DNA of 11,850 nt. It comes from a virus. Its lineage: Duplodnaviria; Heunggongvirae; Uroviricota; Caudoviricetes. Below, piece by piece: positions 1-11,850 of the stretch. The position numbers and the translations under genes were made by a program. Numbering within the stretch: the first letter of the stretch is position 1; each line of letters opens with the position of its first letter. The notes below the pieces were generated by a model, which made no database searches, was not told the DNA's origin, and saw only the letters and a list, made by a program, of their open reading frames with translations. The stretch is from IMG/VR virus record IMGVR_UViG_2623620491_000015, positions 1-11,850 of that record. One strand, given 5' to 3'.

Positions 1-333
1 AAGCTCTAATAGCTCCGCAAATTCGCCTACACGCATCCTGCTGGTTGACTGGCCTATTACCACAAAGCCATTCCCGGAAAGGTTAGGAACAACGTCCTGC
101 TGCTTTAATGCTGCGGTAAACACACACTTCCAGCTTTCTGCATCCAGCCAGCGACCATGCCATTCAACCTGACGAGAGACGTCACCTAAGCAGGCCCATA
201 GCTTCCTGTTTTGGTCTAAGCTGCGGTTGCGTTGCTTAAACTCGACAATGATGTCTAAATCGCATGTCCTAAGGTACTGAATGGCGTTATATCTTATAGA
301 TTCATTGGTAAGGTGATATTTGACACATTTCAT
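1..333 (-). CDS. ninB: NinB (Orf-family recombination mediator), C-terminus runs off the left window edge; N-terminal ~34 aa differ from the lambda-type NinB
   Basis: Minus-strand ATG at 333-331 with GAGG 8 nt upstream. Own translation gives MKCVKYHLTNESIRYNAIQYLRTCDLDIIVEFKQRNRSLDQNRKLWACLGDVSRQVEWHGRWLDAESWKCVFTAALKQQDVVPNLSGNGFVVIGQSTSRMRVGEFAELLEL, open to position 1. From RNRSLDQ onward it matches NinB as I recall it. Not in the ORF track because it is edge-truncated. Confidence 0.75.
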   Translation of the reverse strand, partial: MKCVKYHLTNESIRYNAIQYLRTCDLDIIVEFKQRNRSLDQNRKLWACLGDVSRQVEWHGRWLDAESWKCVFTAALKQQDVVPNLSGNGFVVIGQSTSRMRVGEFAELLEL

Positions 334-826
334 TTTAATACCTCGCAAATTCGCCGAAACATTCATCCGCTTTATTTGCATATACTTTATGAGCTTCCTT
401 TGGGTCATCGTAAAACCCAAGATTAACTTTCCTCTTGTTGATTACGATTTGCGCCCTCCATTTTCTTGATTTCTTATCCCATGAAACGCCTTTATATCCT
501 GATTTGTTATTTGCCTTTTTGTTTACGTTTTGGATGTTTTGAGATCGAGTTGCCAATCTAAGATTTGCTATACGATTGTCATCCCTAACGAGATTTATGT
601 GGTCGATATCACTTTTTGGTAGACTGCCATTCATATAGAGCCACGCCAGCCTGTGTGCCTTATAAAGTTTTCCATCGACTTTTATTACCCAGTAGCCTTC
701 GCTACTCTTATGCCCTGCGATATCCCCAGCATTCATTCTCTGGCATTTCTTTACTTTCCATGTGAATTTCCCTGTTAACTCATCGTAGAGAAGGACTTCT
801 TTTAGTCTCTGCTGAGTTATTTGATT
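232..826 (-). mobile_element. Homing-endonuclease cassette inserted in the 5' part of ninB (HNH-AP2 coding segment plus a replacement ninB 5' end)
   Basis: NinB-like sequence sits on both sides: residues 1-32 at 922..827 and from residue ~35 at 231 downward. The intervening segment is visibly AT-rich compared with flanking DNA and encodes the endonuclease domains plus a new ninB start with its own SD. Boundaries are approximate. Confidence 0.5.
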
Positions 827-922
827 GATTGGTTTGGTTGGGTCTGGAAGGATTTGCTGTACTGCGTGAATAGCGTTCTGCTGATGTGCTGGAGATCGAA
901 TTTCAAAGGTTAGTTTTTTCAT
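335..922 (-). CDS. HNH (HNH_3) + AP2-domain homing endonuclease, fused in frame to the first 32 residues of lambda-type NinB
   Basis: Track ORF 335..940 starts at TTG; the ATG at 922 (MKKLTFEI...) has a purine-rich SD (GGGAGAGGGAAG) just upstream. Motif DIDHINLVRDDNRIANLRLATRSQN is HNH_3-like; SGYKGVSWDKKSRKWRAQIVINKRKVNLGFYDDPKEAHKVYANKA is AP2-like. The first 32 aa read like the NinB N-terminus. Confidence 0.8.
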   Translation of the reverse strand: MKKLTFEIRSPAHQQNAIHAVQQILPDPTKPINQITQQRLKEVLLYDELTGKFTWKVKKCQRMNAGDIAGHKSSEGYWVIKVDGKLYKAHRLAWLYMNGSLPKSDIDHINLVRDDNRIANLRLATRSQNIQNVNKKANNKSGYKGVSWDKKSRKWRAQIVINKRKVNLGFYDDPKEAHKVYANKADECFGEFARY

Positions 923-936
923 GACTTCCCTCTCCC

Positions 937-970
937 CCAAATAAAAAGGCCTGCGATTACCAGCAGGCCT
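937..970 (-). terminator. tR2-like intrinsic terminator between helicase and ninB region
   Basis: Perfect 8-bp inverted repeat aggcctgc / gcaggcct (947-954, 963-970) with an 8-nt loop. On the minus strand it is followed by TTTTATTTGG. Confidence 0.6.
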
Positions 971-995
971 GTTATTAGCTCAGTGATGTAGATGG

Positions 996-2372
996 TCATA
1001 CGTCAGCCCCTTGTGCATATCGTCTGCCACGCGCAGCAGGTGCATTTGATGCTGTGCAAATCTGTCTGGCTTCATCCTGGTCACATGCAACAAAGTGTCC
1101 GTTACAGAACCGCTGGTAAACCGTACCAAGCGAGCCAAAACGGTTTTTCGTCACGATGATTTCAGCAAATGGCGCGGCGCTACTGTTCTCGTCATATACC
1201 GCTTCCCGATAGAGCATGATGATTGAGTCTGCGTCCTGTTCAATGCTTCCTGAATCACGCAAATCTGCGTTTGTCGGGCGTTTGTTTGGTCGCTTCTCAA
1301 CATCGCGCGAAAGCTGACTTAGGGAGATAACAGGCGTTTTCAGGTCTTTCGCCATCGCCTTCAGGCTTCCGGAGATGTGAGCAATTGCTAGGTCGTTGCG
1401 GTCTGCTTTCGGCTTCTCAATCAGGCCAAGATAATCCGCCATGATTAGAGACAGGTTTGGATTTTCCTGTTTATGCCGTTCTGCGATTGAGCGTATTTCT
1501 TCGACCGATAACCGCGAGGCATCGACTACCCATACATCCAAATCTGCAAGCTGACTCATGCCGTTAGCAACACGCGCCCAGCCTTCGTCATCCATCGATG
1601 CAGGATTTCGCAGTACGCTAACCGACATCCTCCCGGCGTTGGCAATGCTTCGCTCTGCAATCTGCAATGCGCTCATTTCCATTGAGAAAATCAATACCCC
1701 GCGCCGGACGTCAGAACCAGGAATAACGCGGCTTGCAACGCCTTCGGCAATCTTCAGCGCCAGTTCGGTTTTCCCCATACCAGGACGAGCAGCGATTATC
1801 ACCAGGTCTTCTGCGTTCATCCCTCCGGTGATGGCATCAAGTTCTTCGATTCCGGTCTTCAGGGTATCGGACTCTTCTCCGTTCCTCAGACGCCTGTCAA
1901 GCGTGTCAGTGTAGTCAGTGATGATTTCCCCTAACCGTACAGGTTTAACCTCGTCACGGGGCTTTCTGATAGCTGAGAGACGTTTTACAAGTTCATCCAT
2001 CGCCTGACTCGATGCGTCGATGGTTCCGCTCTGAATTGGTTCACGCATTTCATCCATGATTTCCAGCACCAGACGGCGGTGATAGTTATCCGCGACCATT
2101 CCGGCATATCCCTTCAGGTTTGCGGCACTCGGGCAGTTTTTGCTGGTCATCAGGATTGACGTGAAATGCTCCTCTCCGCATTCCTCAGCAACCATCAGCG
2201 CGTCGATTAGGTTTCTGTTTCGCGCCTGCTTGCGGATAACCTCGAAGGCTTTCCGGTAGAGCGGAATTGAAAACGCTTCCGGCTCCAGCGTTGCCAGAAC
2301 GTCACTGGCGGTTGGAGTTAATCCACCAATCAGCAAGCCACCGATAACGCTCGCTTCGATATCCTGTCTCAT
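996..2372 (-). CDS. Replicative DNA helicase, DnaB family (P22 gp12-like)
   Basis: 458-aa ORF with Walker A ([15 protein letters not shown]) and DnaB-type RecA-fold motifs ([29 protein letters not shown]). ATG at 2372 overlaps the upstream gene's stop (ATGA). Confidence 0.9.
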
Positions 2373-3316
2373 GCAATCCCCCTGTCTGCAAACTTCCCTT
2401 CCCGTACTCCCGTTAACGAATCTTCCCTCAGCAGGTAATCAAAATCTGCCGTCCAGCCCGTGTCGTTGTCTCCGAAGTAAAACGGCTTGGCCTGATGCAC
2501 AAACGCCCTGACATACGCTCTGAAACCGTCCACGTTTGGCGTTTTCAGTTGCGGAATGATTTTCTTCAGGCGACGTTTGCGTTTCTCGTTGACCGCAACA
2601 GCGTGTGGCAGTCTGTCACCGACTTCGGTGTTGTAGGCATTCAGGAAGGATTCATAGTCGATTCGTTCTGCCTTGCGACGTTCAGGTTTAACCTGCCCAT
2701 CGCCTCCCCCATTGGGGGGTAGGGGGGTATTATTTATATTCTTGTTAATACCTTCTTGTTCATGATGTGCGGTTGTTTGTGCGGCTTCATGTGCGCTTTC
2801 ATGTGCGGCATGTACGCTGAAAGCCGCGCCATTACTGGCTTCGTCATGTGCGGCGTCATGTGCGGTTGTTTGTGCGGCTTCATGTGCGGGTGAATTGTCC
2901 ATTTTTTGAGCATATTCATGGTAATTTGTGATGGTGATCACACGACCTTTTTGCTTCTCTCCATCAATGGTGATCATCCCCTCTTTCACAAAAACCTGAA
3001 GCATCCGCTCAACCTGATCACGGCTTGCCGGCTTGCCATGCCTGTCGCATAACTGAAGACCTAAATCAGCTGCTGTCACAACCAGTTGACCGGGTTGCAG
3101 ATGCCATTCATGACCTTTGAAATTCGCTTTGTATGGCTTTCTGGCGGCATTCAGGAGAAGGTTTTCCCACAGGGTGCGAAGATAAACATCTTTCGCCCAT
3201 GACTGTTTCAGAATGCTCCGGTACAACGGAATGTAACCAGTTTTCTGGTTCTCCATCCTGTTGCTCCTGCGCTCGTGTGCGGCGCTGAAATCGTAGATTT
3301 TTGCTGTGTTGCTCAT
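2369..3316 (-). CDS. Replication initiator protein (lambda O / P22 gp18-like) with a repetitive Ala/His-rich linker
   Basis: 315-aa ORF. The N-terminus [10 protein letters not shown] resembles lambda O (MTNTAKILNF). It sits immediately upstream of, and translationally coupled to, the helicase gene. The internal repeat region coincides with the iteron-like DNA repeats. Confidence 0.8.
2766..2894. repeat. Eight copies of a 12-bp direct repeat TGTGCGGnnnnn in two clusters of four; candidate ori iterons
   Basis: Units at 2766, 2778, 2790, 2802 and 2847, 2859, 2871, 2883 (tgtgcggttgtt, tgtgcggcttca, tgtgcgctttca, ...). A G-rich then AT-rich stretch follows at 2710-2760 (ggggggtaggggggtattatttatattcttgttaata). 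This is the same arrangement as ori-lambda inside O. Confidence 0.55.
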
Positions 3317-3318
3317 AA

Positions 3319-3591
3319 CTACCTGCCTTGACGAAAGACCTTAAGAACATCGTTAAACTGACTTACGGATATGTCTTCTTTGAGCAGCTTTTCCAGAAAT
3401 GCGTTTGGAATGAACGTATATCCATCCTCTTTTGGTAGAGACGGGAGCAACGCCCTCGCCTCAGCCTTCAGAAGCTCAGTTCTGGCAACTTTCACAAAAG
3501 AGATTTGAGTTCTTTCATCAATGGAACGAAGGAAGCGCAAACGCTTAGCTTCTTTGTGTGTATCAGGTGGATTAAAGCCTTTGTTTCGCAT
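3319..3591 (-). CDS. Hypothetical protein (90 aa) between cII and the O-like gene
   Basis: Internal ATG of track ORF 3319..3756 at 3591 with GAGG SD. The upstream part of the track ORF overlaps cII in another frame and is discarded. The stop abuts the O-like start. Confidence 0.55.
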   Translation of the reverse strand: MRNKGFNPPDTHKEAKRLRFLRSIDERTQISFVKVARTELLKAEARALLPSLPKEDGYTFIPNAFLEKLLKEDISVSQFNDVLKVFRQGR

Positions 3592-3602
3592 ATAATTACC
3601 TC

Positions 3603-3669
3603 GTTGGATGTTGTTAAAATTCCATTTGTATTTGATCAGAACGCTCGGTTGCCGCCGGGCGTTTTTTAT
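3603..3669 (+). ncRNA. oop: oop-like antisense RNA overlapping the 3' end of cII
   Basis: Plus-strand TATAAT at 3591-3596. The 3' end CAGAACGCTCGGTTGCCGCCGGGCGTTTTTTATT matches the lambda oop terminator as I recall it. It is antisense to the last ~55 nt of cII. The 5' end is an estimate. Confidence 0.6.
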
Positions 3670-3910
3670 TGGTGAGTCCATCAAGCGCATACTTAAAAGC
3701 CCTGCTAATCGGACTGATATCTGATGCCATTCCGAAAGCACACAAGACCGAGGCAATAAATCTCCAGTCCGTTCTGCTTATCTTCGATTCATGACAGCCA
3801 ATCATCTTTGCCAGACCGCGCTGGGTAAGTGTTGACAGGTTGATGAGTAAATCGGTTTCTGCGCGATCAACATCGCGCTGTGATAGTTTGCTGTAACTTG
3901 TTTGTTCCAT
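3614..3910 (-). CDS. cII: Transcriptional activator CII
   Basis: 98 aa. The C-terminus LTNKKRPAATERSDQIQMEF and the central ...ESKISR... match lambda CII. Position between cro and the replication genes fits. Confidence 0.9.
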   Translation of the reverse strand: MEQTSYSKLSQRDVDRAETDLLINLSTLTQRGLAKMIGCHESKISRTDWRFIASVLCAFGMASDISPISRAFKYALDGLTNKKRPAATERSDQIQMEF

Positions 3911-3925
3911 TTCTTACTATTTCCA
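3888..3925 (+). promoter_or_regulatory. PRE-like promoter with CII-box repeats (TTGC-N6-TTGT) overlapping the cII start
   Basis: ttgc tgtaac ttgt at 3888-3901, immediately beside the cII ATG (complement of 3908-3910). Same geometry as lambda PRE, oriented toward cro and cI. Confidence 0.5.
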
Positions 3926-3974
3926 TAGGTAAATAATCACTAATACTCATCTTTCGATGAGCGATTAATTAGTT

Positions 3975-4010
3975 ACCGCGTTGTCGGCGGTGCAGATTGA
4001 TAAAGAGCGG
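3975..4010 (-). promoter_or_regulatory. nutR (boxA + P22-type boxB)
   Basis: Minus strand reads CCGCTCTTTA (boxA, 4001-4010), then ACCGCCGACAACGCGGT (boxB hairpin, 3975-3991), between cro and cII. Confidence 0.7.
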
Positions 4011-4019
4011 ATCCGCTTA

Positions 4020-4235
4020 TTAAGCGGCTTTGTGTTCCGGCGGGAACACGTCATCAAGACTGACTTTTGCGCCTAACTTGTTTAGGCACGCAACAAGAGC
4101 ACGGCATGTTTTAAGGTCTGGGAAGCGACGACCAGATTCCCAATGTCCGATAGCTCCCTGTGTGCATCCAACCGCCTTAGCAAGTGTTGTTTGAGAGATA
4201 TTCAGTGACTCTCGATATTTTCGTAGGTTGCTCAT
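4020..4235 (-). CDS. cro: Cro-like HTH repressor (71 aa)
   Basis: Internal ATG at 4235 with GGAGGG SD directly upstream. HTH region SQTTLAKAVGCTQGAIGHWESGRR. Divergent from cI across the operator region. The 5' extension of the track ORF is discarded. Confidence 0.8.
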   Translation of the reverse strand: MSNLRKYRESLNISQTTLAKAVGCTQGAIGHWESGRRFPDLKTCRALVACLNKLGAKVSLDDVFPPEHKAA

Positions 4236-4346
4236 ATGCCCTCCATAGTAACCATGAAACAATAATACGATATGTACTTTTGGAATGCAAACAAAAAATA
4301 CATCTTGTGCATGGATGGTTTTAGTACATAGCGTAATAATAAGGAT
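4236..4346. promoter_or_regulatory. OR region: divergent PR/PRM with repeated ~17-bp operator motif
   Basis: Operator-like sites at 4262-4280 and 4321-4339 are inverted copies (AGTACATAnCGTAnTA) and are partly palindromic. PR candidate on the minus strand: -35 TTGCAT (complement of 4285-4290), 17 bp, -10 TATTAT (complement of 4262-4267). cI may be nearly leaderless. Confidence 0.6.
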
Positions 4347-5006
4347 ATGAAAATGAAATGGTATGAACTGGCTAGATCCAGAATGAAAGAGCTCGGCATA
4401 ACTCAAGAGAAGTTAGCTGAAGAGCTTGGTATGACGCAGGGTGGAATTGGTCACTGGTTGCGCGGATCTCGTCATCCATCTCTTGACGAGATTGGTGTGG
4501 TGTTTAAATACCTTGGTATTGATAACGTCTCATTCAACCACGACGGTACATTTTCACCTGCTGGCGAATACTCATCTGCCCCCGTTAAAAAACAATATGA
4601 GTACCCTGTTTTTTCTCATGTTCAGGCCGGGATGTTCTCGCCTGAGCTTAGAACCTTTACCAAAGGTGATGCGGAGAGATGGGTCAGCACAACCAAAAAA
4701 GCCAGTGATTGTGCGTTTTGGCTTGAAGTTGAAGGTAATTCCATGACCGCACCAACAGGATCCAAGCCAAGCTTTCCTGACGGAATGTTAATTCTCGTTG
4801 ACCCTGAGCAGGCTGTTGAGCCAGGAGATTTCTGCATAGCCAGACTTGGCGGTGACGAGTTTACCTTCAAGAAACTGATCAGGGATAGCGGTCAGGTGTT
4901 CCTACAACCACTAAACCCGCAATATCCAATGATCCCATGCAATGATAGCTGTTCCGTAGTAGGGAAAGTTATCGCCAGCCAGTGGCCTGAAGAGACATTT
5001 AGTTAA
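4347..5006 (+). CDS. cI: CI repressor (LexA-like S24 autocleavage domain); lambda-type C-terminal domain with a non-lambda N-terminal HTH domain
   Basis: The C-terminal ~125 aa ([22 protein letters not shown]...[11 protein letters not shown]) are near-identical to lambda CI as I recall it. N-terminal HTH is [25 protein letters not shown]. Alternative start ATG at 4353 with AAGGA SD. Confidence 0.9.
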
Positions 5007-5038
5007 CAGCCTCACCACTCTAAAACACACAACAATAA

Positions 5039-5066
5039 CCCGACCTTAGCGTCGGGTTTTCTTTTT
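5039..5066 (+). terminator. Intrinsic terminator downstream of cI
   Basis: cccgac-cttagc-gtcggg hairpin followed by TTTTCTTTTT. Confidence 0.7.
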
Positions 5067-5085
5067 CCAAAATATAAATCAATAA

Positions 5086-5160
5086 AATACAAAGTGTTAT
5101 AAAAAACCAACCACATTTAGAACATTTTGTATTGACTCAATAAAGTACACATCGTACTAT
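5086..5160 (+). promoter_or_regulatory. OL/PL: leftward early promoter with operator sites
   Basis: -35 TTGACT (5132-5137), 17 bp, -10 TACTAT (5155-5160). Site AGTACACATCGTACTAT (5144-5160) matches the OR motif. Inverted pair aatacaaagtgtt (5086-5098) / aacattttgtatt (5121-5133) lies upstream. Confidence 0.6.
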
Positions 5161-5206
5161 TTAGCCATCAGCAGGAAGCTGGAAGCCAAACGGAACAGAT
5201 TGGCAG

Positions 5207-5240
5207 GCTCTTTAACTTCGATGGGGCGCTGACAAAGCGC
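5207..5240 (+). promoter_or_regulatory. nutL (boxA GCTCTTTAAC + P22-type boxB GCGCTGACAAAGCGC)
   Basis: boxA-like at 5207-5216 and a perfect 5-bp stem / 5-nt loop hairpin at 5226-5240, in the PL leader upstream of N. Confidence 0.75.
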
Positions 5241-5359
5241 AAACAGATACCAAACGAGATGGGTTTGGCGGTGATGTGAATTGCAGCTGCAACGACAGCA
5301 ACCAGAAGATCAGCACCTGGCGCATCACCACCAAAGCCATTTCACATGAGGAAAATATC

Positions 5360-5668
5360 ATGACGGTAATCGTGTACGGAAAATCAACATTTGCAGGAAA
5401 TGCCAAAACTCGCCGTCATGAGCGGCGCAGAAAGCTGGCTATCGAGCGTGATGCTATATGCAACATCATCGATTCGATCTTCGGCACAGACAGTGAGGAA
5501 CCTGTTCAGGAAGCCCCGAGAAAGCGTTTAAGCATTTCTGAAAAAGCAATATCACTCGGCATCATTAGCAAATCAAATACAGATGCGAATAGCGGAAGCG
5601 TTTGTTTGCCTGAAGTTGCACTGTATGCTGCTGGTTACAGAAGGCAAAAACTAATTACAGCGAGGTAA
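5360..5668 (+). CDS. N: Antitermination protein N (P22 gp24-type arginine-rich motif)
   Basis: ATG at 5360 with GAGGA SD. N-terminus MTVIVYGKSTFAGNAKTRRHERRRKLAIER matches the boxB-binding peptide of P22 N. The upstream part of the track ORF is discarded. Confidence 0.85.
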   Translation: MTVIVYGKSTFAGNAKTRRHERRRKLAIERDAICNIIDSIFGTDSEEPVQEAPRKRLSISEKAISLGIISKSNTDANSGSVCLPEVALYAAGYRRQKLITAR

Positions 5669-5670
5669 AA

Positions 5671-5949
5671 ATGAAGCCTAGCATAACAATCAAGCCAGCG
5701 AGAGATAATAGCAGGAACCGCCGCAGAGAGGCCAGGAAGGCAGAAAGAGCAGAGAAGGAAAACAAGAGCCGGGAGGAGAGAAAGGCAGAGATTTTGGAAA
5801 AAGGAGGATTGGCTGCCGTGAGGGGTGAAAAAGCAGCTGAATTAGCAGTAGCTCACGAAAAGACAGAGATTGACAATAATTCTGGTGGAGATGCAATGTT
5901 TAAAGTTGTCAATCACGCCCATCAACGAAACCCCAAAAAGAAATGGTAA
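5671..5949 (+). CDS. Hypothetical highly charged (Arg/Lys/Glu-rich) 92-aa protein
   Basis: ATG 3 nt after the N stop with GAGG SD. The DNA is strongly purine-rich on the coding strand. Ends just before a terminator. Confidence 0.55.
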   Translation: MKPSITIKPARDNSRNRRREARKAERAEKENKSREERKAEILEKGGLAAVRGEKAAELAVAHEKTEIDNNSGGDAMFKVVNHAHQRNPKKKW

Positions 5950-5952
5950 TCA

Positions 5953-5977
5953 ACCCGTCCAAGACGGGTTTTTTATT
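5953..5977 (+). terminator. Intrinsic terminator (tL1-like)
   Basis: cccgtc-caa-gacggg hairpin followed by TTTTTTATT. Confidence 0.7.
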
Positions 5978-6006
5978 GCAAGCAAACCACTTATTTGAGA
6001 TGAGAT

Positions 6007-6372
6007 ATGGAAGAACAAGCAAACAAGATTCTCGTAGAACTACTGCAAAAAGCCAGCAATGGAATAGACGCGGCTGTTTCATTTAGCCAGGCACAGATTC
6101 CTGATGTCATCCATCAGCTTTTGATGTGGCACGCCGTATCATCAGCTGGAATTCAGGCTATCTGTGTATTGGTGATTATAGCGTGTGTTTATCTGATGAT
6201 TTTTGCATGGAATAAAGGAGATGATGCGGATGTTGTTCTTTTATCGCTACTTGTAACATCAGGAATAGCGATTACTTCTATTGTTGTTTTCTTCAATTAT
6301 TTCGACTGGCTGAAAATCTGGCTTGCTCCAAAACTTTACCTTATCGAATATGCAGCATCATTGGTTAAGTAA
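6007..6372 (+). CDS. Hypothetical small membrane protein (two predicted TM helices)
   Basis: 121 aa. Hydrophobic segments IQAICVLVIIACVYLMIFAW and VVLLSLLVTSGIAITSIVVFF. Sits where lambdoid phages carry sieB/ral-type accessory genes. Weak SD. Confidence 0.55.
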   Translation: MEEQANKILVELLQKASNGIDAAVSFSQAQIPDVIHQLLMWHAVSSAGIQAICVLVIIACVYLMIFAWNKGDDADVVLLSLLVTSGIAITSIVVFFNYFDWLKIWLAPKLYLIEYAASLVK

Positions 6373-6376
6373 TTTC

Positions 6377-6402
6377 AGGCCGCATAGTCGGCCTTCATTT
6401 TT
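6377..6402 (+). terminator. Intrinsic terminator
   Basis: aggccg-catagt-cggcct hairpin followed by TCATTTTT. Confidence 0.6.
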
Positions 6403-6404
6403 GG

Positions 6405-6547
6405 CATAAACAACAGAATAAACACTGCACTGTGTATTCATTCCAACGAGTGAATACACGGAGCAATGTCGCTCGTAACTAAACAGGAGCCGACTTGTTC
6501 TGATTATTGGAAATCTTCTTTGCCCTCCAGTGTGAGGGCATTTTTTT
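6405..6547 (+). ncRNA. Candidate structured non-coding RNA or leader bounded by two terminators
   Basis: No ORF. 9-bp perfect inverted repeat gtgtattca / tgaatacac (6432-6440, 6451-6459), additional pairing acgag / ctcgt, and a terminal intrinsic terminator gccctc-cagtgt-gagggc + TTTTTTT (6522-6547). Confidence 0.35.
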
Positions 6548-6559
6548 GACGGAGGAAAT

Positions 6560-6871
6560 ATGAAATTACGTGTCTGGCATATCCCGCAAGTACCTATGAA
6601 GCCGTTCATTGTAGAAGTGGCAAGTGTTGAAGAGGGTGTTCGCCTGATGGACGCACTGGCTGATTATGACGCCTTTCAGTATGACAACAACATCAAGCCT
6701 GATTACTGCAATGCTAACGGCCTTGAGATGTGGGATGAGAGCCTTACCGATGAAGATTTATCAGAGATGGGGCTTACTGATCGCTGGGTGGATTGGTACA
6801 GCGAATGCCAATGTTACGACGACCCACGTAAATATCTCGAAAGCCTGAAAGAAGAAACATCAGCCGCCTAA
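6560..6871 (+). CDS. Hypothetical acidic 103-aa protein
   Basis: ATG with GGAGG SD. Strongly acidic composition (many D/E, Trp-rich). Sits in the ea10/ral-equivalent position. Confidence 0.65.
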   Translation: MKLRVWHIPQVPMKPFIVEVASVEEGVRLMDALADYDAFQYDNNIKPDYCNANGLEMWDESLTDEDLSEMGLTDRWVDWYSECQCYDDPRKYLESLKEETSAA

Positions 6872-6946
6872 GCGCGGCTTTACCGCATACCAATAACGCT
6901 TCACTCGAGGCGTTTTCGTTATGCAATCAAATATAAGGAGTTACCC

Positions 6947-7081
6947 ATGATGCACTTTCAGCTCGCGGGTAGCGGCGTCATGTCCGCTTTCTACCCGCAC
7001 GAATCTGAATTATCACGCCGAGTTAAACAATTAATCAGAGCAGCAAAGAAACAACTGGAGGCGTTATGCGCAATGAAATAG
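6947..7081 (+). CDS. cIII: CIII-like FtsH-inhibitor peptide (44 aa)
   Basis: Not in the track (<60 aa). AAGGAG SD 7 nt upstream. MMHFQLAGSGVMSAFYPHESELSRRVKQLIRAAKKQLEAL resembles the lambda CIII core (AIAGWPVAGCPSESLLERITRKLRDGWKRL). Confidence 0.7.
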   Translation: MMHFQLAGSGVMSAFYPHESELSRRVKQLIRAAKKQLEALCAMK

Positions 7082-7218
7082 CCATTAATCACCAGATGCT
7101 TCGTGCGGCACAAAACAAAGCAGTAATAGCCAGATTTATTGGTGATTCAAAAATGTGGCTTGAAGCAAATAAAGCGATGAAATCAGCTATCAACCTTCCG
7201 TGGTATCGCAGGAAATGA
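7066..7218 (+). CDS. kil: Kil-like peptide (50 aa), putative host cell-division inhibitor
   Basis: Not in the track. GGAGG SD; the start overlaps the cIII-like 3' end. Motif ARFIGDSKMW resembles lambda Kil as I recall it. Synteny cIII then kil. Confidence 0.5.
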   Translation: MRNEIAINHQMLRAAQNKAVIARFIGDSKMWLEANKAMKSAINLPWYRRK

Positions 7219-7293
7219 GTTTTACAGATAACTGGTCAGACGAAGAATTCATTCGTCAGATGAAAGAATTAATCGGTAACGAAGGAGATATTC

Positions 7294-7464
7294 ATGTCAC
7301 TTGCAACCACAGTGAAGGAGAGCAAGTTACAGAGACGCATGTACACGCAGCAGGCGTTAATGTATCGCCAGAAGGGAGATCGTGAAGGTGTTCGCGTATT
7401 TTTAAATGCGGCAAAGACTGAAGTATTAAATCAGCGTTATTTCCTTGGGCCGTGTCCATTCTGA
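7294..7464 (+). CDS. Hypothetical 56-aa protein (Arf-like position upstream of the annealing protein)
   Basis: AAGGAG SD 6 nt upstream of the ATG. Plausible helical sequence MSLATTVKESKLQRRMYTQQALMYRQKGDREGVRVFLNAAKTEVLNQRYFLGPCPF. A competing ORF 7215..7385 in another frame is coupled to kil by ATGA. Confidence 0.5.
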   Translation: MSLATTVKESKLQRRMYTQQALMYRQKGDREGVRVFLNAAKTEVLNQRYFLGPCPF

Positions 7465-7472
7465 GGTGAATT

Positions 7473-8180
7473 ATGGATTTGAATAAATTCGATGAGCCAT
7501 TCAGCCCTGAAGATATCGAATGGCGAATACAGCAAAGCGGTAAAACACGCGATGGCAAAGTGTGGGCTATGGTGCTGGCTTATGTAACGAACCGGGCAAT
7601 CATGAAACGCCTGGACGATGTTTGCGGCAAAGCAGGATGGCGCAATGAATACCGCGATATTCCCAACAACGGCGGCGTTGAATGCGGCATATCAATAAAG
7701 ATTGATTCCGAATGGGTAACCAAATGGGATGCTGCTGAAAACACGCAGGTAGAAGCCGTCAAAGGTGGTCGTTCCGGTGCAATGAAGCGCGCTGCCGTTC
7801 AGTGGGGAATCGGTCGGTATCTGTATAACCTTGAGGAAGGTTTCGCACAAACATCTCTCGATAAAAAGCAGGGATGGCACAGGGCAAAACTCAAGGATGG
7901 AACAGGATTTTACTGGCTCCCTCCATCGCTGCCGGGATGGGCAATACCAGCATCAGATAACAAACCATCACCAGAAAATACCAACCAGAAATCTCCATCG
8001 GTTGACTGCGAACAAATCCTGAAAGACTTCAGCGATTATGCGTCAACAGAAACTGACAAGAAAAAACTCATCGAGCGTTATCAGCGTGACTGGCAATTAA
8101 TGGCTGGCAATGAGGAGGCGCAGGCTAAATGCGTTCAGGTAATGAACATCAGAGTTAACGAACTAAAACAGGCGGCATAA
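7473..8180 (+). CDS. Single-strand annealing protein, Rad52/Sak family
   Basis: 235 aa with Rad52-like motifs (RLDDVCGKAGW ... GAMKRAAVQWGIGRYLY). Directly precedes ssb. Confidence 0.7.
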   Translation: MDLNKFDEPFSPEDIEWRIQQSGKTRDGKVWAMVLAYVTNRAIMKRLDDVCGKAGWRNEYRDIPNNGGVECGISIKIDSEWVTKWDAAENTQVEAVKGGRSGAMKRAAVQWGIGRYLYNLEEGFAQTSLDKKQGWHRAKLKDGTGFYWLPPSLPGWAIPASDNKPSPENTNQKSPSVDCEQILKDFSDYASTETDKKKLIERYQRDWQLMAGNEEAQAKCVQVMNIRVNELKQAA

Positions 8181-8687
8181 ATGGCAAGCAGAGGCGTAAA
8201 TAAGGTGATTATCCTTGGTCGGGTAGGACAAGACCCGGAAGTTCGATACTCACCATCAGGTACAGCGTTCGCTAACCTGACAATAGCCACGTCAGAACAA
8301 TGGCGAGATAAAAATACTGGCGAGCAAAAGGAATTGACTGAATGGCATCGTGTTGCTGTATCCGGGAAACTGGCTGAGGTCGTGGGGCAGTATGTGAAAA
8401 AAGGTGATCAGATTTATTTCGAGGGAATGCTGAGAACCAGAAAGTGGAAAGACCAGTCAGGGCAAGACCGTTACACAACCGAGGTTCATGTCGGAATTAA
8501 TGGCGTGATGCAAATGCTTGGCGGCATTGGCGACAGCAAACAACAAGCAGCCAGCAGGCAATCACAGAAGCCACAGCAGCAATCATCACCAGCACAACAC
8601 AACGAACCTCCGATGGATTTTGACGACGATATACCCTTTGCACCAGTAACTCTCCCCTTCCCTCGTCACGCTATTCACGCAATTTAA
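8181..8687 (+). CDS. ssb: Single-stranded DNA-binding protein with a 15-aa extension after the DDDIPF motif
   Basis: OB-fold N-terminus ([23 protein letters not shown]...), Q/S-rich linker, then MDFDDDIPF followed by [15 protein letters not shown] before the stop. Confidence 0.85.
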
Positions 8688-8700
8688 TCAGGAGAAAATC

Positions 8701-8997
8701 ATGCCAGCGCCTCAGTATGGTGCGGATGACCCGCGCCGCTGTTCCGGCAATTCCGTATCGGAGGTGCTGGATAAATTCAGGAAAAACTACGACCGGATAA
8801 TGTCGCTACCGCAGGAAACGAAAGAGGAAAAGGAATTTCGCCATTGTATATGGCTTGCAGAGAAAGAAGAACGCGAGCGAATTTACCAGACATCAATCCG
8901 ACCATTCCGCAAAGCCACATATACCCACTTCCCTGAATATATCGACCCTCGCCTGCGTAATTACCGCTCACGCTATGGCGCTATCAGTAATGACTGA
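8701..8997 (+). CDS. Hypothetical protein (98 aa)
   Basis: ATG with AGGAG SD. Confidence 0.6.
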
Positions 8998-9007
8998 GGA
9001 ATTTACT

Positions 9008-9172
9008 ATGAGAGGACTTGCATACAATCCCGGCATTCTTCCGGCAGAAATGATTATTCGCCAACGCGTAAAGCCAATGCCATCGAGAGAGGAATTGCTT
9101 AAGAGAAATTCTTTTCAATCAGTAAATCAAAACAAATATCTGAATGCGATGTTGCGGAGTGGGAAGAAATGA
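9008..9172 (+). CDS. Hypothetical protein (54 aa)
   Basis: ATG at 9008 with GAGGA SD. The upstream part of track ORF 8855..9172 overlaps the previous gene and is discarded. Confidence 0.5.
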
Positions 9173-9645
9173 AACAAATGTCACTAATTGAGATGGATGG
9201 ATTCCTGAAAGGTAAATGCATCCCCCGAGATTTAAAGGTTAACGAAACAAACGCTGAATATCTGGTGCGTAAGTTCGGTGAACTTGAATCAAAACTAGAA
9301 ACGGCGTTGCGGGAGTGTCGTTCTGCTGGAATCACGATTGATAACCTTGAGGCCAAGTGCGCGGCGCTGGCTGCTGAAAAAGAGACATTTGCTGTCGAGT
9401 GTGCGGCCGCAAAAATCGCCATTGCATACCTGAAATCAGGACGACAGGATTTTTCGCTTAACACCCCAGCCACTGACGCTTTCCTGGCTGAAGTCCGGGC
9501 TAAGGCGTTTGATGACCTTTGCGCGGCGTTCGTTAAGCACGCGTCGGTGTCCGGGCTGGACGATGGCGACTGCGTTACGGTGAAAGAGGCGACTGACGCC
9601 CTGCTGCATTGTGCGGAACAGCTTCACGAGGGAGTGCATTCATGA
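9169..9645 (+). CDS. Hypothetical protein (158 aa)
   Basis: ATGA overlap with the upstream gene. Predicted helical, Ala-rich. Confidence 0.6.
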
Positions 9646-9875
9646 GCAACCTACTACCATGTCCATTCTGTGGCGGCGCAGCGCACGTTGCCAGCGAAGC
9701 AGATCACCCTGAATATGGCTCTGGCGGTCGATTCTATTTCGTTCGATGCGGTACGTGTCGCGCTCAATCTGGTAGCAAATATGCAGCGCCTGGAAATGAC
9801 TGCGCGATTTTTTATTCAGAGGTTAGAGCAGAGTGGAATCAGCGAGCAAAGGAGGCAACCAGTGAGCCAGATTGA
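9642..9875 (+). CDS. lar: Lar-family restriction alleviation protein (zinc-ribbon)
   Basis: ATGA overlap with the upstream stop. [12 protein letters not shown] ... RCGTCR ... EWNQRA matches the Lar/RalR pattern (CPFCG ... C..C ... WN.R). Confidence 0.65.
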   Translation: MSNLLPCPFCGGAAHVASEADHPEYGSGGRFYFVRCGTCRAQSGSKYAAPGNDCAIFYSEVRAEWNQRAKEATSEPD

Positions 9876-10413
9876 TTATCAGGCACTGCGTGCTAAGGCA
9901 GAAAAAGCAACGTGTGGTGTGTGGTCGCTCGAATATGGAGAGAGCCGATTTGATTGTGATGATGCGCTAATTCATCGTGACGTTGTTGGATATCTTCCCA
10001 TTTGCAGAATTGAAGGAGCGCATCCAGAAAGCGGTTTCGATGAAGATTTCCAAATGGAACAGCAGGCCAATGCTGAATTCATCGCCGCAGCCAATCCGGC
10101 TACTGTGCTGGCATTACTGGATGAACGGGAAAGGAACCAGCAATACATCAAATCCCGCGACCAGGAGAACGAGGAGATTGCGTTAACGGTAGGGAAGTTG
10201 CGCGTTGAGCTTGAGGCAGAAAAACAGCGGGCAAAGGATCTGTTTATGGAAAATGCTCGGCTTAAGTCAGGTATAGCCGGTCTGATACACCTCGGTATTC
10301 GATATGCAGATGTTGAGGTCATGAGAATTGCTGGAGATGCCCAGCTTTCTACCCCATGCACTGACAGCATCATAAACAGCATTGCAACAGGCATTCGCAT
10401 CAAAGGAGAGTGA
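9862..10413 (+). CDS. Ead/Ea22-like protein
   Basis: GTG start with AAGGAGG SD 7 nt upstream. N-terminus SQIDYQALRAKAEKATCGVW is typical of the Ea22-like family. The part of the track ORF upstream of 9862 overlaps lar in another frame and is discarded. Confidence 0.65.
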   Translation: MSQIDYQALRAKAEKATCGVWSLEYGESRFDCDDALIHRDVVGYLPICRIEGAHPESGFDEDFQMEQQANAEFIAAANPATVLALLDERERNQQYIKSRDQENEEIALTVGKLRVELEAEKQRAKDLFMENARLKSGIAGLIHLGIRYADVEVMRIAGDAQLSTPCTDSIINSIATGIRIKGE

Positions 10414-10615
10414 TATGAGCAGGAATATGGGTTTGTAAAAGATAACGCTTGTGAAAATGCTGAATTTCGCGTCGTCTTCACAGCGATGCCAGAGTCTGTA
10501 GTGTCAGATGATGACCGTACTCAAACATCGGGTTGAGTATTATCTTACTGTTTCTTTACATAAACATTGCTGATACCGTTTAGCTGAAACGACATACATT
10601 TCAAGGAGTTTATAA

Positions 10616-10897
10616 ATGCGTATCAATGAGTTAGAGTCTGAGCAAAAAGATTGGGCGTTATCAATGTTGTGCAGATCCGGTGTCTTGTCTCCATGCAGAC
10701 ATCACGAAGGTGTTTATGTAGATGAAGGTATAGATATAGAGTCGGCATACAAATATTCAATGAAGGTTTATAAGTCTAATGAAGACAAATCCCCATTCTG
10801 CAATGTGCGAGAAATGACTGATACCGTGCAAAATTATTATCACGAGTACGGTGGAAACGATACTTGCCCTCTCTGTGCAAAACATATAGATGATTAA
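10616..10897 (+). CDS. Hypothetical Cys-rich 93-aa protein in an AT-rich island (moron-like)
   Basis: AAGGAG SD. Visibly AT-rich compared with flanking DNA. Cysteines include a C-terminal CPLC pair. Followed by an intrinsic terminator. Confidence 0.6.
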   Translation: MRINELESEQKDWALSMLCRSGVLSPCRHHEGVYVDEGIDIESAYKYSMKVYKSNEDKSPFCNVREMTDTVQNYYHEYGGNDTCPLCAKHIDD

Positions 10898-10917
10898 ACC
10901 AAATATTACATAACAAT

Positions 10918-10944
10918 CCTCGCACTCGCGGGGATTTCTTTTAT
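10918..10944 (+). terminator. Intrinsic terminator
   Basis: cctcgc-actc-gcgggg hairpin followed by ATTTCTTTTAT. Confidence 0.6.
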
Positions 10945-10985
10945 CTGAACTCGCTACGGCGGGTTTTGTTTTATGGAGATGATAA

Positions 10986-11153
10986 ATGCACTTCCGAGTC
11001 ACAGGTGAATGGAATGGAGAGCCATTCAACAGGGTTATCGAAGCAGAGAACATCAACGACTGCTATGACCACTGGATGCTATGGGCGCAGATAGCACATG
11101 CAGACGTAACCAATATTCGAATTGAAGAACTGAAAGAACACCAAGCCGCCTGA
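10986..11153 (+). CDS. Hypothetical protein (55 aa)
   Basis: Not in the track. ATG with GGAG upstream. The stop lies inside the terminator hairpin. Confidence 0.45.
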   Translation: MHFRVTGEWNGEPFNRVIEAENINDCYDHWMLWAQIAHADVTNIRIEELKEHQAA

Positions 11154-11168
11154 TGGCGGTTTTTTATT
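11146..11168 (+). terminator. Intrinsic terminator
   Basis: ccgcc-tgat-ggcgg hairpin followed by TTTTTTATT. Confidence 0.6.
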
Positions 11169-11179
11169 GGAGACAAGAA

Positions 11180-11524
11180 ATGTCAGATTTGGCTATGAAG
11201 GTTTTGAAATGGCAATCAACTGGCGATGTTGGCATCAGTAGCGCAACTCTTGCCTCAATCGCATGTGGCCTGAAAAAGAATATCTATGGTCATCACTTCG
11301 GCGCTCCCCATGACGCAGCAGACTTTCGGCGATGCGTTGCACTTGTTGAGCAGATTCCAGAAATCAGAGATTCATTCGACAAGGTTGCAAAGCGCGTTCC
11401 GGTATTCAAAGGCATCCTCAACGAATGGGATTCCCTCGTCGCTCTGTTGAAGTCTGAAATGAAGACGTACGGGAACAAAGCACCAGAGACTTACAGAAGA
11501 ATCAGCGAGCTACGCAAGGACTAA
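11180..11524 (+). CDS. Hypothetical protein (114 aa)
   Basis: ATG at 11180 with GGAGA SD. The 9-codon upstream extension in the track overlaps the terminator and is discarded. Confidence 0.6.
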   Translation: MSDLAMKVLKWQSTGDVGISSATLASIACGLKKNIYGHHFGAPHDAADFRRCVALVEQIPEIRDSFDKVAKRVPVFKGILNEWDSLVALLKSEMKTYGNKAPETYRRISELRKD

Positions 11525-11584
11525 CCACAGCCTCACACTCGATGAGGCCTGTTCATTGCTCAATGATATCCAGACCTACCATCG

Positions 11585-11607
11585 CCGCATCAATGCGGTT
11601 TTTTATT
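11585..11607 (+). terminator. Intrinsic terminator
   Basis: ccgcat-ca-atgcgg dyad followed by TTTTTTATT. Confidence 0.55.
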
Positions 11608-11649
11608 GCCTGATTTACAGGTTCGATTCCCTATTCGGAGATAGCACTC

Positions 11650-11850
11650 ATGCAACACGAACTACAGCCTGATTCACTGGTTGATTTGAAATTCATCATG
11701 GCCGATACTGGCTTCGGTAAGACCTTCATCTATGACCGGATTAAGTCCGGCGACCTGCCTAAAGCCAAAGTTATCCACGGGCGAGCAAGATGGTTATATC
11801 GTGACCATTGTGAATTCAAAAATAAGCTCTTAAGCCGCGCCAATGGGTAA
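11650..11850 (+). CDS. xis: Excisionase / AlpA-family DNA-binding protein
   Basis: 66 aa. FIYDRIKSGDLPKAKVIHGRARW is an AlpA/Xis-type winged-helix motif. The stop codon is the last three bases of the window; an integrase is expected just beyond. Confidence 0.7.
   Translation: MQHELQPDSLVDLKFIMADTGFGKTFIYDRIKSGDLPKAKVIHGRARWLYRDHCEFKNKLLSRANG

Follow-up and report, generated by a model that had tools for sequence, protein, structure and literature searches.

The ea8.5 gene of phage λ

In phage λ the ea8.5 gene (lambdap36, NP_040611, λ 29374–29655) belongs to the cI-repressed pL operon and comes on early upon infection or induction (PMC7093339, PMC9239242, PMC4195576); it is dispensable for plaque formation (PMC10695390). 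The exo-xis region that contains it impairs lysogenisation as a whole, and blocked initiation of host replication has also been tied to this region. According to Los et al. 2008, in the summary given by PMC7093339, the CII-dependent promoter paQ is repressed when ea8.5 is over-dosed, and pI weakly so; the functional evidence for λ ea8.5 comes from multicopy-plasmid experiments of this kind and is weak. Yeast two-hybrid partners of the protein include Int, Q, Ren, MinE and tail-fibre proteins, and that work flagged Ea8.5 as promiscuous, with at least 10 partners, and hence less reliable. Binding of MinE, cell-cycle synchrony and a replication block have been proposed as alternative roles. Three terminators, t3, t4 and t5, have been predicted for this part of the λ genome (Bloch et al. 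2014, PMC4195576, Table 4), and two structures of Ea8.5 homologues, 2M7A and 2M7B (Kwan et al. 2013), have a homeodomain/zinc-finger hybrid fold according to the passages of PMC8614690 and PMC3824215 that cite them.

An ea8.5 cassette in a mosaic lambdoid prophage

The window analyzed here, the 11,850 nucleotides at positions 1 to 11,850 of IMG/VR virus record IMGVR_UViG_2623620491_000015, is the early region of a mosaic lambdoid prophage. An AT-rich island near its right end (10414–10944) is very probably the ea8.5 cassette of phage λ, a passenger of the pL operon that has been exchanged by recombination. The gene, the terminators, the fold and the operon have all been described for λ already, and the feature is not new. 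The protein encoded in the island is identical to λ Ea8.5 at 91 of 93 amino acids (tblastn, 50,697 phage records), S2R and T88A being the sole differences in a direct BLASTP comparison. The tblastn matches in those records are λ, its laboratory derivatives and hybrids, and no more distant ea8.5 relatives were found among them. The similarity extends well beyond the gene: window positions 10390–11169 are 96.7% identical to λ 29870–29102 (reverse strand), a block that spans the last eight codons of ea22, the leader, ea8.5, t3/t4, orf55 and t5. In the leader there is one mismatch across 187 aligned nt (10429–10615). The protein matches Pfam family PF20735 (Lambda_ea8_5) at 162.3 bits against a gathering cut-off of 27, with residues 8–93 covering profile positions 1–90 of 90, and it aligns end to end with PHROG 6325 (1–93/93).

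The original prediction, made from the letters of the sequence, had described the island as a moron with a visible drop in base composition, a non-coding leader of ∼200 bp, a gene with a strong Shine-Dalgarno sequence and a Cys-rich 93-aa product, and a dedicated terminator. The descriptive parts of this account hold up well; the gene was not recognized there as λ ea8.5. The G+C content of 10414–10944 is 38.8% versus 46.6% for the whole window (sd 3.9%, sliding 531-bp windows), ∼2 sd below the window mean, and in the windowed analysis that had been proposed as a check just 0.9% of 531-bp windows were as low, which places the island within the lowest 1%. The dip is real, though it is not unique within the window, where sliding windows found one further locus (∼157–858) that is equally low in G+C. 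The ea8.5 coding region itself has a G+C content of 39.0% and a GC3 of 37.2%, while GC3 is 44–53% in neighboring genes; the unit that appears to be exchanged (leader plus ea8.5, ∼10421–10909) is 38.4% G+C, so that values of 38.4–38.8% stand against ∼47–49% in the flanks. The upstream Ea22-like gene stops at 10413, and the 202 nt that follow (10414–10615) contain no plus-strand ORF of at least 40 aa, only one of 7 and one of 21 codons, both without a ribosome-binding site. The Shine-Dalgarno sequence and the gene are where they had been placed (Table 1), and the product has five cysteines (C19, C27, C62, C84 and C87), with CPLC at residues 84–87. Two minus-strand ORFs in this area, 10757–11056 (99 aa) and 9972–10481 (169 aa), were rejected as spurious; they have no Pfam match and overlap well-supported plus-strand genes.

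Table 1 Features of the ea8.5 locus and of the start of the putative pL operon
Feature	Position	Strand	Basis
cI	4347–5006	+	
pL-like promoter, TTGACT-17-TACTAT	5132–5160	+	Promoter-like site
boxA-like sequence, GCTCTTTAA	5207–5215	+	
boxB hairpin, GCGCTGACAAAGCGC	5226–5240	+	
N antiterminator gene	5276–5668	+	Pfam N_peptide PF25694, 130 bits
Left conserved junction: last 8 Ea22-like codons and stop (GGCATTCGCATCAAAGGAGAGTGA) plus tATGAG	10390–10420	+	blastn boundaries and alignment; common to λ and phage N7
Mini-ORF, 7 codons (ATGAGCAGGAATATGGGTTTGTAA)	10416–10439	+	Alignments to λ and N7
ea8.5 leader, AT-rich, untranslated, 38% G+C	10421–10615	+	Alignment to λ, composition
Shine-Dalgarno sequence AAGGAG, 7 nt before ATG	10603–10608	+	Direct reading of sequence
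ea8.5 coding sequence, 93 aa	10616–10897	+	Homology searches, family alignment, model
Right conserved junction block: t3, t4 and ribosome-binding site of next gene	10910–10985	+	Hairpin scan, comparison with other phages
orf55 (lambdap35 homologue), PHROG 676	10986–11153	+	54/55 identical to λ
Terminator t5, stem 11143–11162 plus T-run	11143–11169	+	Hairpin scan; λ homology stops at 11169

The early left operon

The minus-strand genes of the window are cII, a Cro-like HTH gene, O-type and DnaB-type replication genes and an HNH/AP2 endonuclease gene. Every annotated gene from N through xis lies on the plus strand: N is followed by a superinfection-exclusion-like gene, a Rad52-type recombinase gene, SSB, Abc2 and two Ea22-related genes, and then by ea8.5, orf55, a 114-aa ORF and a TorI-type excisionase gene. 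The boxA and boxB sequences upstream of N (5207–5240) are, we take it, nut sites of the P22 type. N and nutL thus lie downstream of a repressor-adjacent promoter with ea8.5 co-directional downstream of them, as is usual in pL operons under N antitermination. The cassette occupies the equivalent of the λ exo-xis accessory region, which here runs from the recombination genes to xis.

Several other features of this operon deserve mention. A bidirectional terminator-like hairpin (5037–5058) lies directly past cI. Between N and the recombination genes, 6560–6871 encodes the 103-aa superinfection-exclusion-like protein (PHROG 1510 “superinfection exclusion,” E = 5.7e-58), and its gene is flanked by terminator-like hairpins at 6521–6540 and 6895–6914. 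The mechanical ORF call at 11153–11524 begins at an ATG inside t5; the true start of this 114-aa gene is probably the ATG at 11180, which has GGAGA upstream, a reading that agrees with PHROG 1229 and with the RefSeq call in the near-identical prophage of Escherichia coli BS15R-A. The gene lies between orf55 and xis and is absent from λ. The last ORF (11650–11850, 66 aa) matches excisionase/regulator PHROG 66, and its counterpart in the BS15R-A prophage is annotated as response-regulator inhibitor TorI (KplE1/HK620-type Xis). No integrase follows TorI in BS15R-A; the next annotated gene there is on the other strand and encodes an oligosaccharide MFS transporter.

The Ea8.5 protein

Searched exhaustively with HMMER, 1.84 billion representatives yielded 76 relatives of the protein, nearly all of 90–100 residues; a word-indexed protein search had returned close relatives and fragments only, and the diverse members came from the exhaustive search. 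In an alignment of 51 relatives that are 26–97% identical to the query, the sole invariant columns are M1, C27, H30, C84 and C87, and C19 and C62 are not conserved. The predicted zinc ligands are therefore C27, H30, C84 and C87, and the CPLC pair, noted originally as a possible metal-binding site, appears from this invariance to be half of a Cys-His-Cys-Cys site. A sequence search of the PDB found 2M7A over its full length (E = 8.5e-18) and also 2M7B. These two proteins are ∼40% and 28% identical to the window's Ea8.5, respectively, and neither is λ Ea8.5 itself; the Cys/His/Cys/Cys positions are conserved in both, in agreement with their zinc-finger hybrid structures.

The structure prediction that had been suggested as a further check of the metal site points the same way. 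An AlphaFold2 model built from the 51-sequence alignment has a mean pLDDT of 85.6 (a single-sequence model, at pLDDT 41.6, was not used), and its sole significant PDB matches in a Foldseek search are the two hybrid-fold homologues 2M7A and 2M7B (probability 1.0, TM 0.59–0.69). Ea8.5 should thus be a 93-residue helical protein: C27, H30, C84 and C87 would bind one zinc ion, which fastens a homeodomain-like bundle to a C-terminal CxxC knuckle. None of Ea8.5, orf55, the 114-aa ORF and Xis matched an NCBIfam model.

Members of the family also occur in other places. Other lambdoid phages carry relatives of 41–60% identity in their nin region (pR operon); those with 53–60% identity have a different strong terminator downstream, and the 41%-identical copy showed no terminator-like site after it. 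A 32%-identical relative (P0036) lies beside HNH endonuclease genes on the strand opposite to its neighbors, and so should need a promoter of its own. In every context sampled, the ea8.5-family gene is 4–11 G+C points under its flanks. The second low-G+C locus of the window (∼157–858) contains, at 335–940 on the minus strand and just downstream of the DnaB-type helicase gene, a gene for a 200-aa HNH_3 plus AP2-domain protein of the homing-endonuclease type (Pfam). Distant Ea8.5 homologues (L009–L011) likewise adjoin HNH_3 or HNH_3/AP2 genes, a parallel that is probably a coincidence.

The leader and the mini-ORF

The leader was never seen without a λ-type ea8.5. It has no Rfam match (9600–11850, E ≤ 1), and a fold z score of −0.10 gives no indication of a structured RNA. 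A scan of 9600–11850 found no σ70 promoter-like sites where 4.0 were expected; the best relaxed match in the leader agrees at 8/12 positions and none has the canonical 17-nt spacer, and such consensus scans may miss weak, non-canonical or activator-dependent promoters. A reading of the leader as a Rho-utilisation site was dropped, as it contains more G than C (42 versus 33). In a λ-type prophage of E. coli FDAARGOS_1249 an IS3-family element lies inside the ea8.5 leader; ea22 is truncated there and the first ∼117 nt of the island (10414–10530) are gone, with ea8.5 intact.

An 11-nt stretch within the mini-ORF (MSRNMGL) at the left end of the island has no λ counterpart, and the E. coli BS15R-A prophage has the same sequence. 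Its ATGAGC is common to the start of ORF25 of phage N7, a translationally coupled cargo gene, and the mini-ORF is probably the recombination scar of such a coupled start.

In all contexts sampled, Ea8.5-family genes have an untranslated leader of 110–200 nt upstream, which is AT-rich except before divergently oriented copies, and no shared motif or sequence was found among the leaders of the homologues. In early operons, with their tight packing, a recurrent leader of this kind is out of the ordinary and hints at a regulatory role outside the operon-passenger explanation. Nevertheless, we consider it improbable that the leader is a functional regulatory element, be it a repressor-independent or stress-responsive promoter or the target of a silencer, that would make ea8.5 conditionally expressed in the lysogen.

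Terminators and cassette exchange

Terminator t3 has a 9-bp G+C-rich stem at 10915–10936 followed by the T-run TCTTTTATCT, and a second tandem hairpin, t4 (10947–10966), had been missed originally. For the two together the folding energy is −26.4 kcal/mol (z = −3.86), a stability that 0 of 200 shuffled sequences reached. With the third hairpin, t5, these are the terminators predicted for λ. Terminator-like hairpins are abundant throughout this operon, with 9 in 9600–11850 versus 2.0 expected and 13 in 4000–9700 versus 5.3 expected (both strands); they lie behind many genes of the same strand, and a terminator is therefore not peculiar to ea8.5. The claim that the island has a dedicated terminator stands as to the strong hairpin at 10915–10936 and fails as to its dedication: the junction block 10910–10985 is ∼98% conserved behind the ASCH-domain gene of O157 prophages, behind N7 ORF25 and behind a 40%-identical ea8.5 relative, and since the same block follows different cargo, t3 and t4 belong to the backbone junction and not to the cargo. 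Blocks 10910–10985 and 11102–11168 are both ∼98% conserved across phages with unrelated adjacent genes (comparisons with L003, L004 and L051), and in O157 the gene between these two blocks is likewise replaced. Mosaic exchange in this part of the genome thus seems to use the terminator blocks as common junctions.

The same comparisons place both edges of the exchanged unit. Phage N7 and O157:H7 prophages have both flanks of the window in common with it, up to ∼10420 and from 10910; N7 has a 241-aa ORF between them; in the O157:H7 prophages the ASCH-domain gene ends exactly at the 10910 junction; and one prophage (L051) carries the 40%-identical Ea8.5 relative in the same slot, followed by a near-identical t3/t4/orf55 block. 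The L051 prophage is integrated beside a pectinesterase-family gene resembling ybhC, which borders a λ-type prophage. A search of 2.9 million viral contigs for an empty site, with the flanks joined within 0–30 nt, gave no match; because of this, and because relatives have other genes in the slot, exchange here looks like replacement rather than insertion. The alignments support leader and gene as a swappable AT-rich cassette (∼10421–10909), which would have been brought in by recombination at the ea22-type 3′ end and the terminator block. That this block is a conserved recombination junction for varied cargo, lying outside the cassette, is a modest useful point of the analysis.

The cassette was detected in 235 of 5426 complete E. 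coli genomes, and ∼900 more have the terminator block only. That the λ ea8.5 cassette is present in ∼4% of complete E. coli genomes is a second modest useful point; among sequenced phages it is confined to λ and its hybrids and derivatives, and the window shows that it can sit in a P22-like early region. Assemblies named as Shewanella, Pseudomonas, Bradyrhizobium, Streptomyces, Helicobacter, Oceanobacillus and others (L016–L050) also contain ea8.5 at ∼98% identity, as do the records MW057783.1 and OQ055246.1, which are named Campylobacter phage CJLB-4 and Xanthomonas phage vB_XooS_NR08. These occurrences were not accepted as natural distribution; several are low-coverage contigs of ∼48.5 kb, suggesting contamination with λ control DNA, and the assemblies and both phage records look like λ contamination or chimeric records and not like natural hosts.

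Expression and function

Most likely, as in λ, ea8.5 has no promoter of its own and is carried along on leftward early transcripts from pL after repressor is lost; N acting at nutL would let RNA polymerase pass the hairpin terminators, t3/t4 included, and reach xis, and translation of ea8.5 would be driven by its own strong ribosome-binding site. A true moron would instead be an autonomous unit, with a promoter in the AT-rich leader and a terminator belonging to it; it would be transcribed while the prophage is repressed and confer a fitness trait on the lysogen. In favor of a moron are the real composition shift, the joint movement of leader and gene, the terminator behind the gene here and the different one behind the nin-region homologues, the low G+C of the family relative to its flanks in all sampled contexts, the homologue transcribed divergently from its neighbors, and an omics study in which ea8.5 was up in BL21(DE3) under co-culture stress, an increase that partial prophage induction explains equally well. 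We nonetheless regard a true moron as highly improbable, as standard and relaxed scans found no promoter-like site in the leader, the terminator is part of the shared flank and not of the cassette, the 2.9 million viral contigs yielded no empty site, ea8.5 is co-directional with its neighbors inside an N-antiterminated operon, and the λ literature assigns the gene to pL, early after induction (PMC7093339, PMC9239242, PMC4195576). Thus the part of the original moron claim that survives is a distinct composition and an exchangeable cassette, while autonomy, ownership of the terminator and expression in the lysogen are unsupported. It was also considered that the ORF might be a chance frame in AT-rich spacer DNA, with the hairpins simply terminating the ea22-like gene. 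Small size is all that speaks for this, and the match to a curated Pfam family at 162 bits, the 76 relatives of conserved length with invariant ligands found by exhaustive search, the solved structures of homologues and the strong ribosome-binding site refute it, leaving it a vanishingly small probability.

As to what a pL-expressed Ea8.5 might do, transfer from λ suggests a dispensable early modulator that would damp CII-dependent promoters, paQ strongly and pI weakly, and so tilt development away from lysogeny; it may also add to the block of host replication caused by the exo-xis region. By homology the protein most likely acts as a small regulatory binder. The same pL-driven gene could have its main role not at CII-dependent promoters but on the host cell-cycle machinery, through sequestration of MinE or the “bin” block of replication initiation. 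MinE is indeed among the two-hybrid partners, and early work tied both inhibited host replication and cell-cycle synchrony to the exo-xis region (orf73, ea22, ea8.5 and orf55); against this, the protein's promiscuity in the two-hybrid work bears on the MinE interaction too, and the sole gene-specific phenotype reported is repression of paQ and pI (PMC7093339). Nothing in the sequence separates the two roles, and we judge a mainly cell-cycle role unlikely without being negligible. For the modulator role favored here, as for the other, the window adds nothing that makes the biochemistry of Ea8.5 more testable than λ does.

Comparison with known systems

The morons of lambdoid phages (Juhala/Hendrix; for example λ lom and bor, and HK97 gp15) resemble the island in being single accessory genes of low G+C with non-coding DNA around them and an intrinsic terminator, and in being present in some relatives and absent from others. 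Unlike them, the island has no detectable promoter, its terminator is shared backbone, and its slot always holds some gene, which speaks of replacement and not of addition; ea8.5 moreover is an early-operon gene, not a late one, and in published λ work its expression starts at pL upon induction instead of occurring in the repressed prophage.

The closest match is λ itself, which has the same leader, ribosome-binding site, tandem terminators and downstream orf55, and in which ea8.5 is likewise a pL-operon gene placed after one of the Ea22 family and ahead of xis. There are differences besides the substitutions S2R and T88A. The 11-nt stretch just past the ea22 stop, which makes the 7-codon mini-ORF, is missing from λ, and the surrounding phage is not λ: N and nutL are of the P22 type; Rad52-like recombinase, SSB and Abc2 replace exo/bet/gam; the body of Ea22 differs, a 70-aa stretch alone aligning (60% identity) although its last 8 codons are identical; and an extra 114-aa gene and a TorI-type excisionase gene follow orf55.
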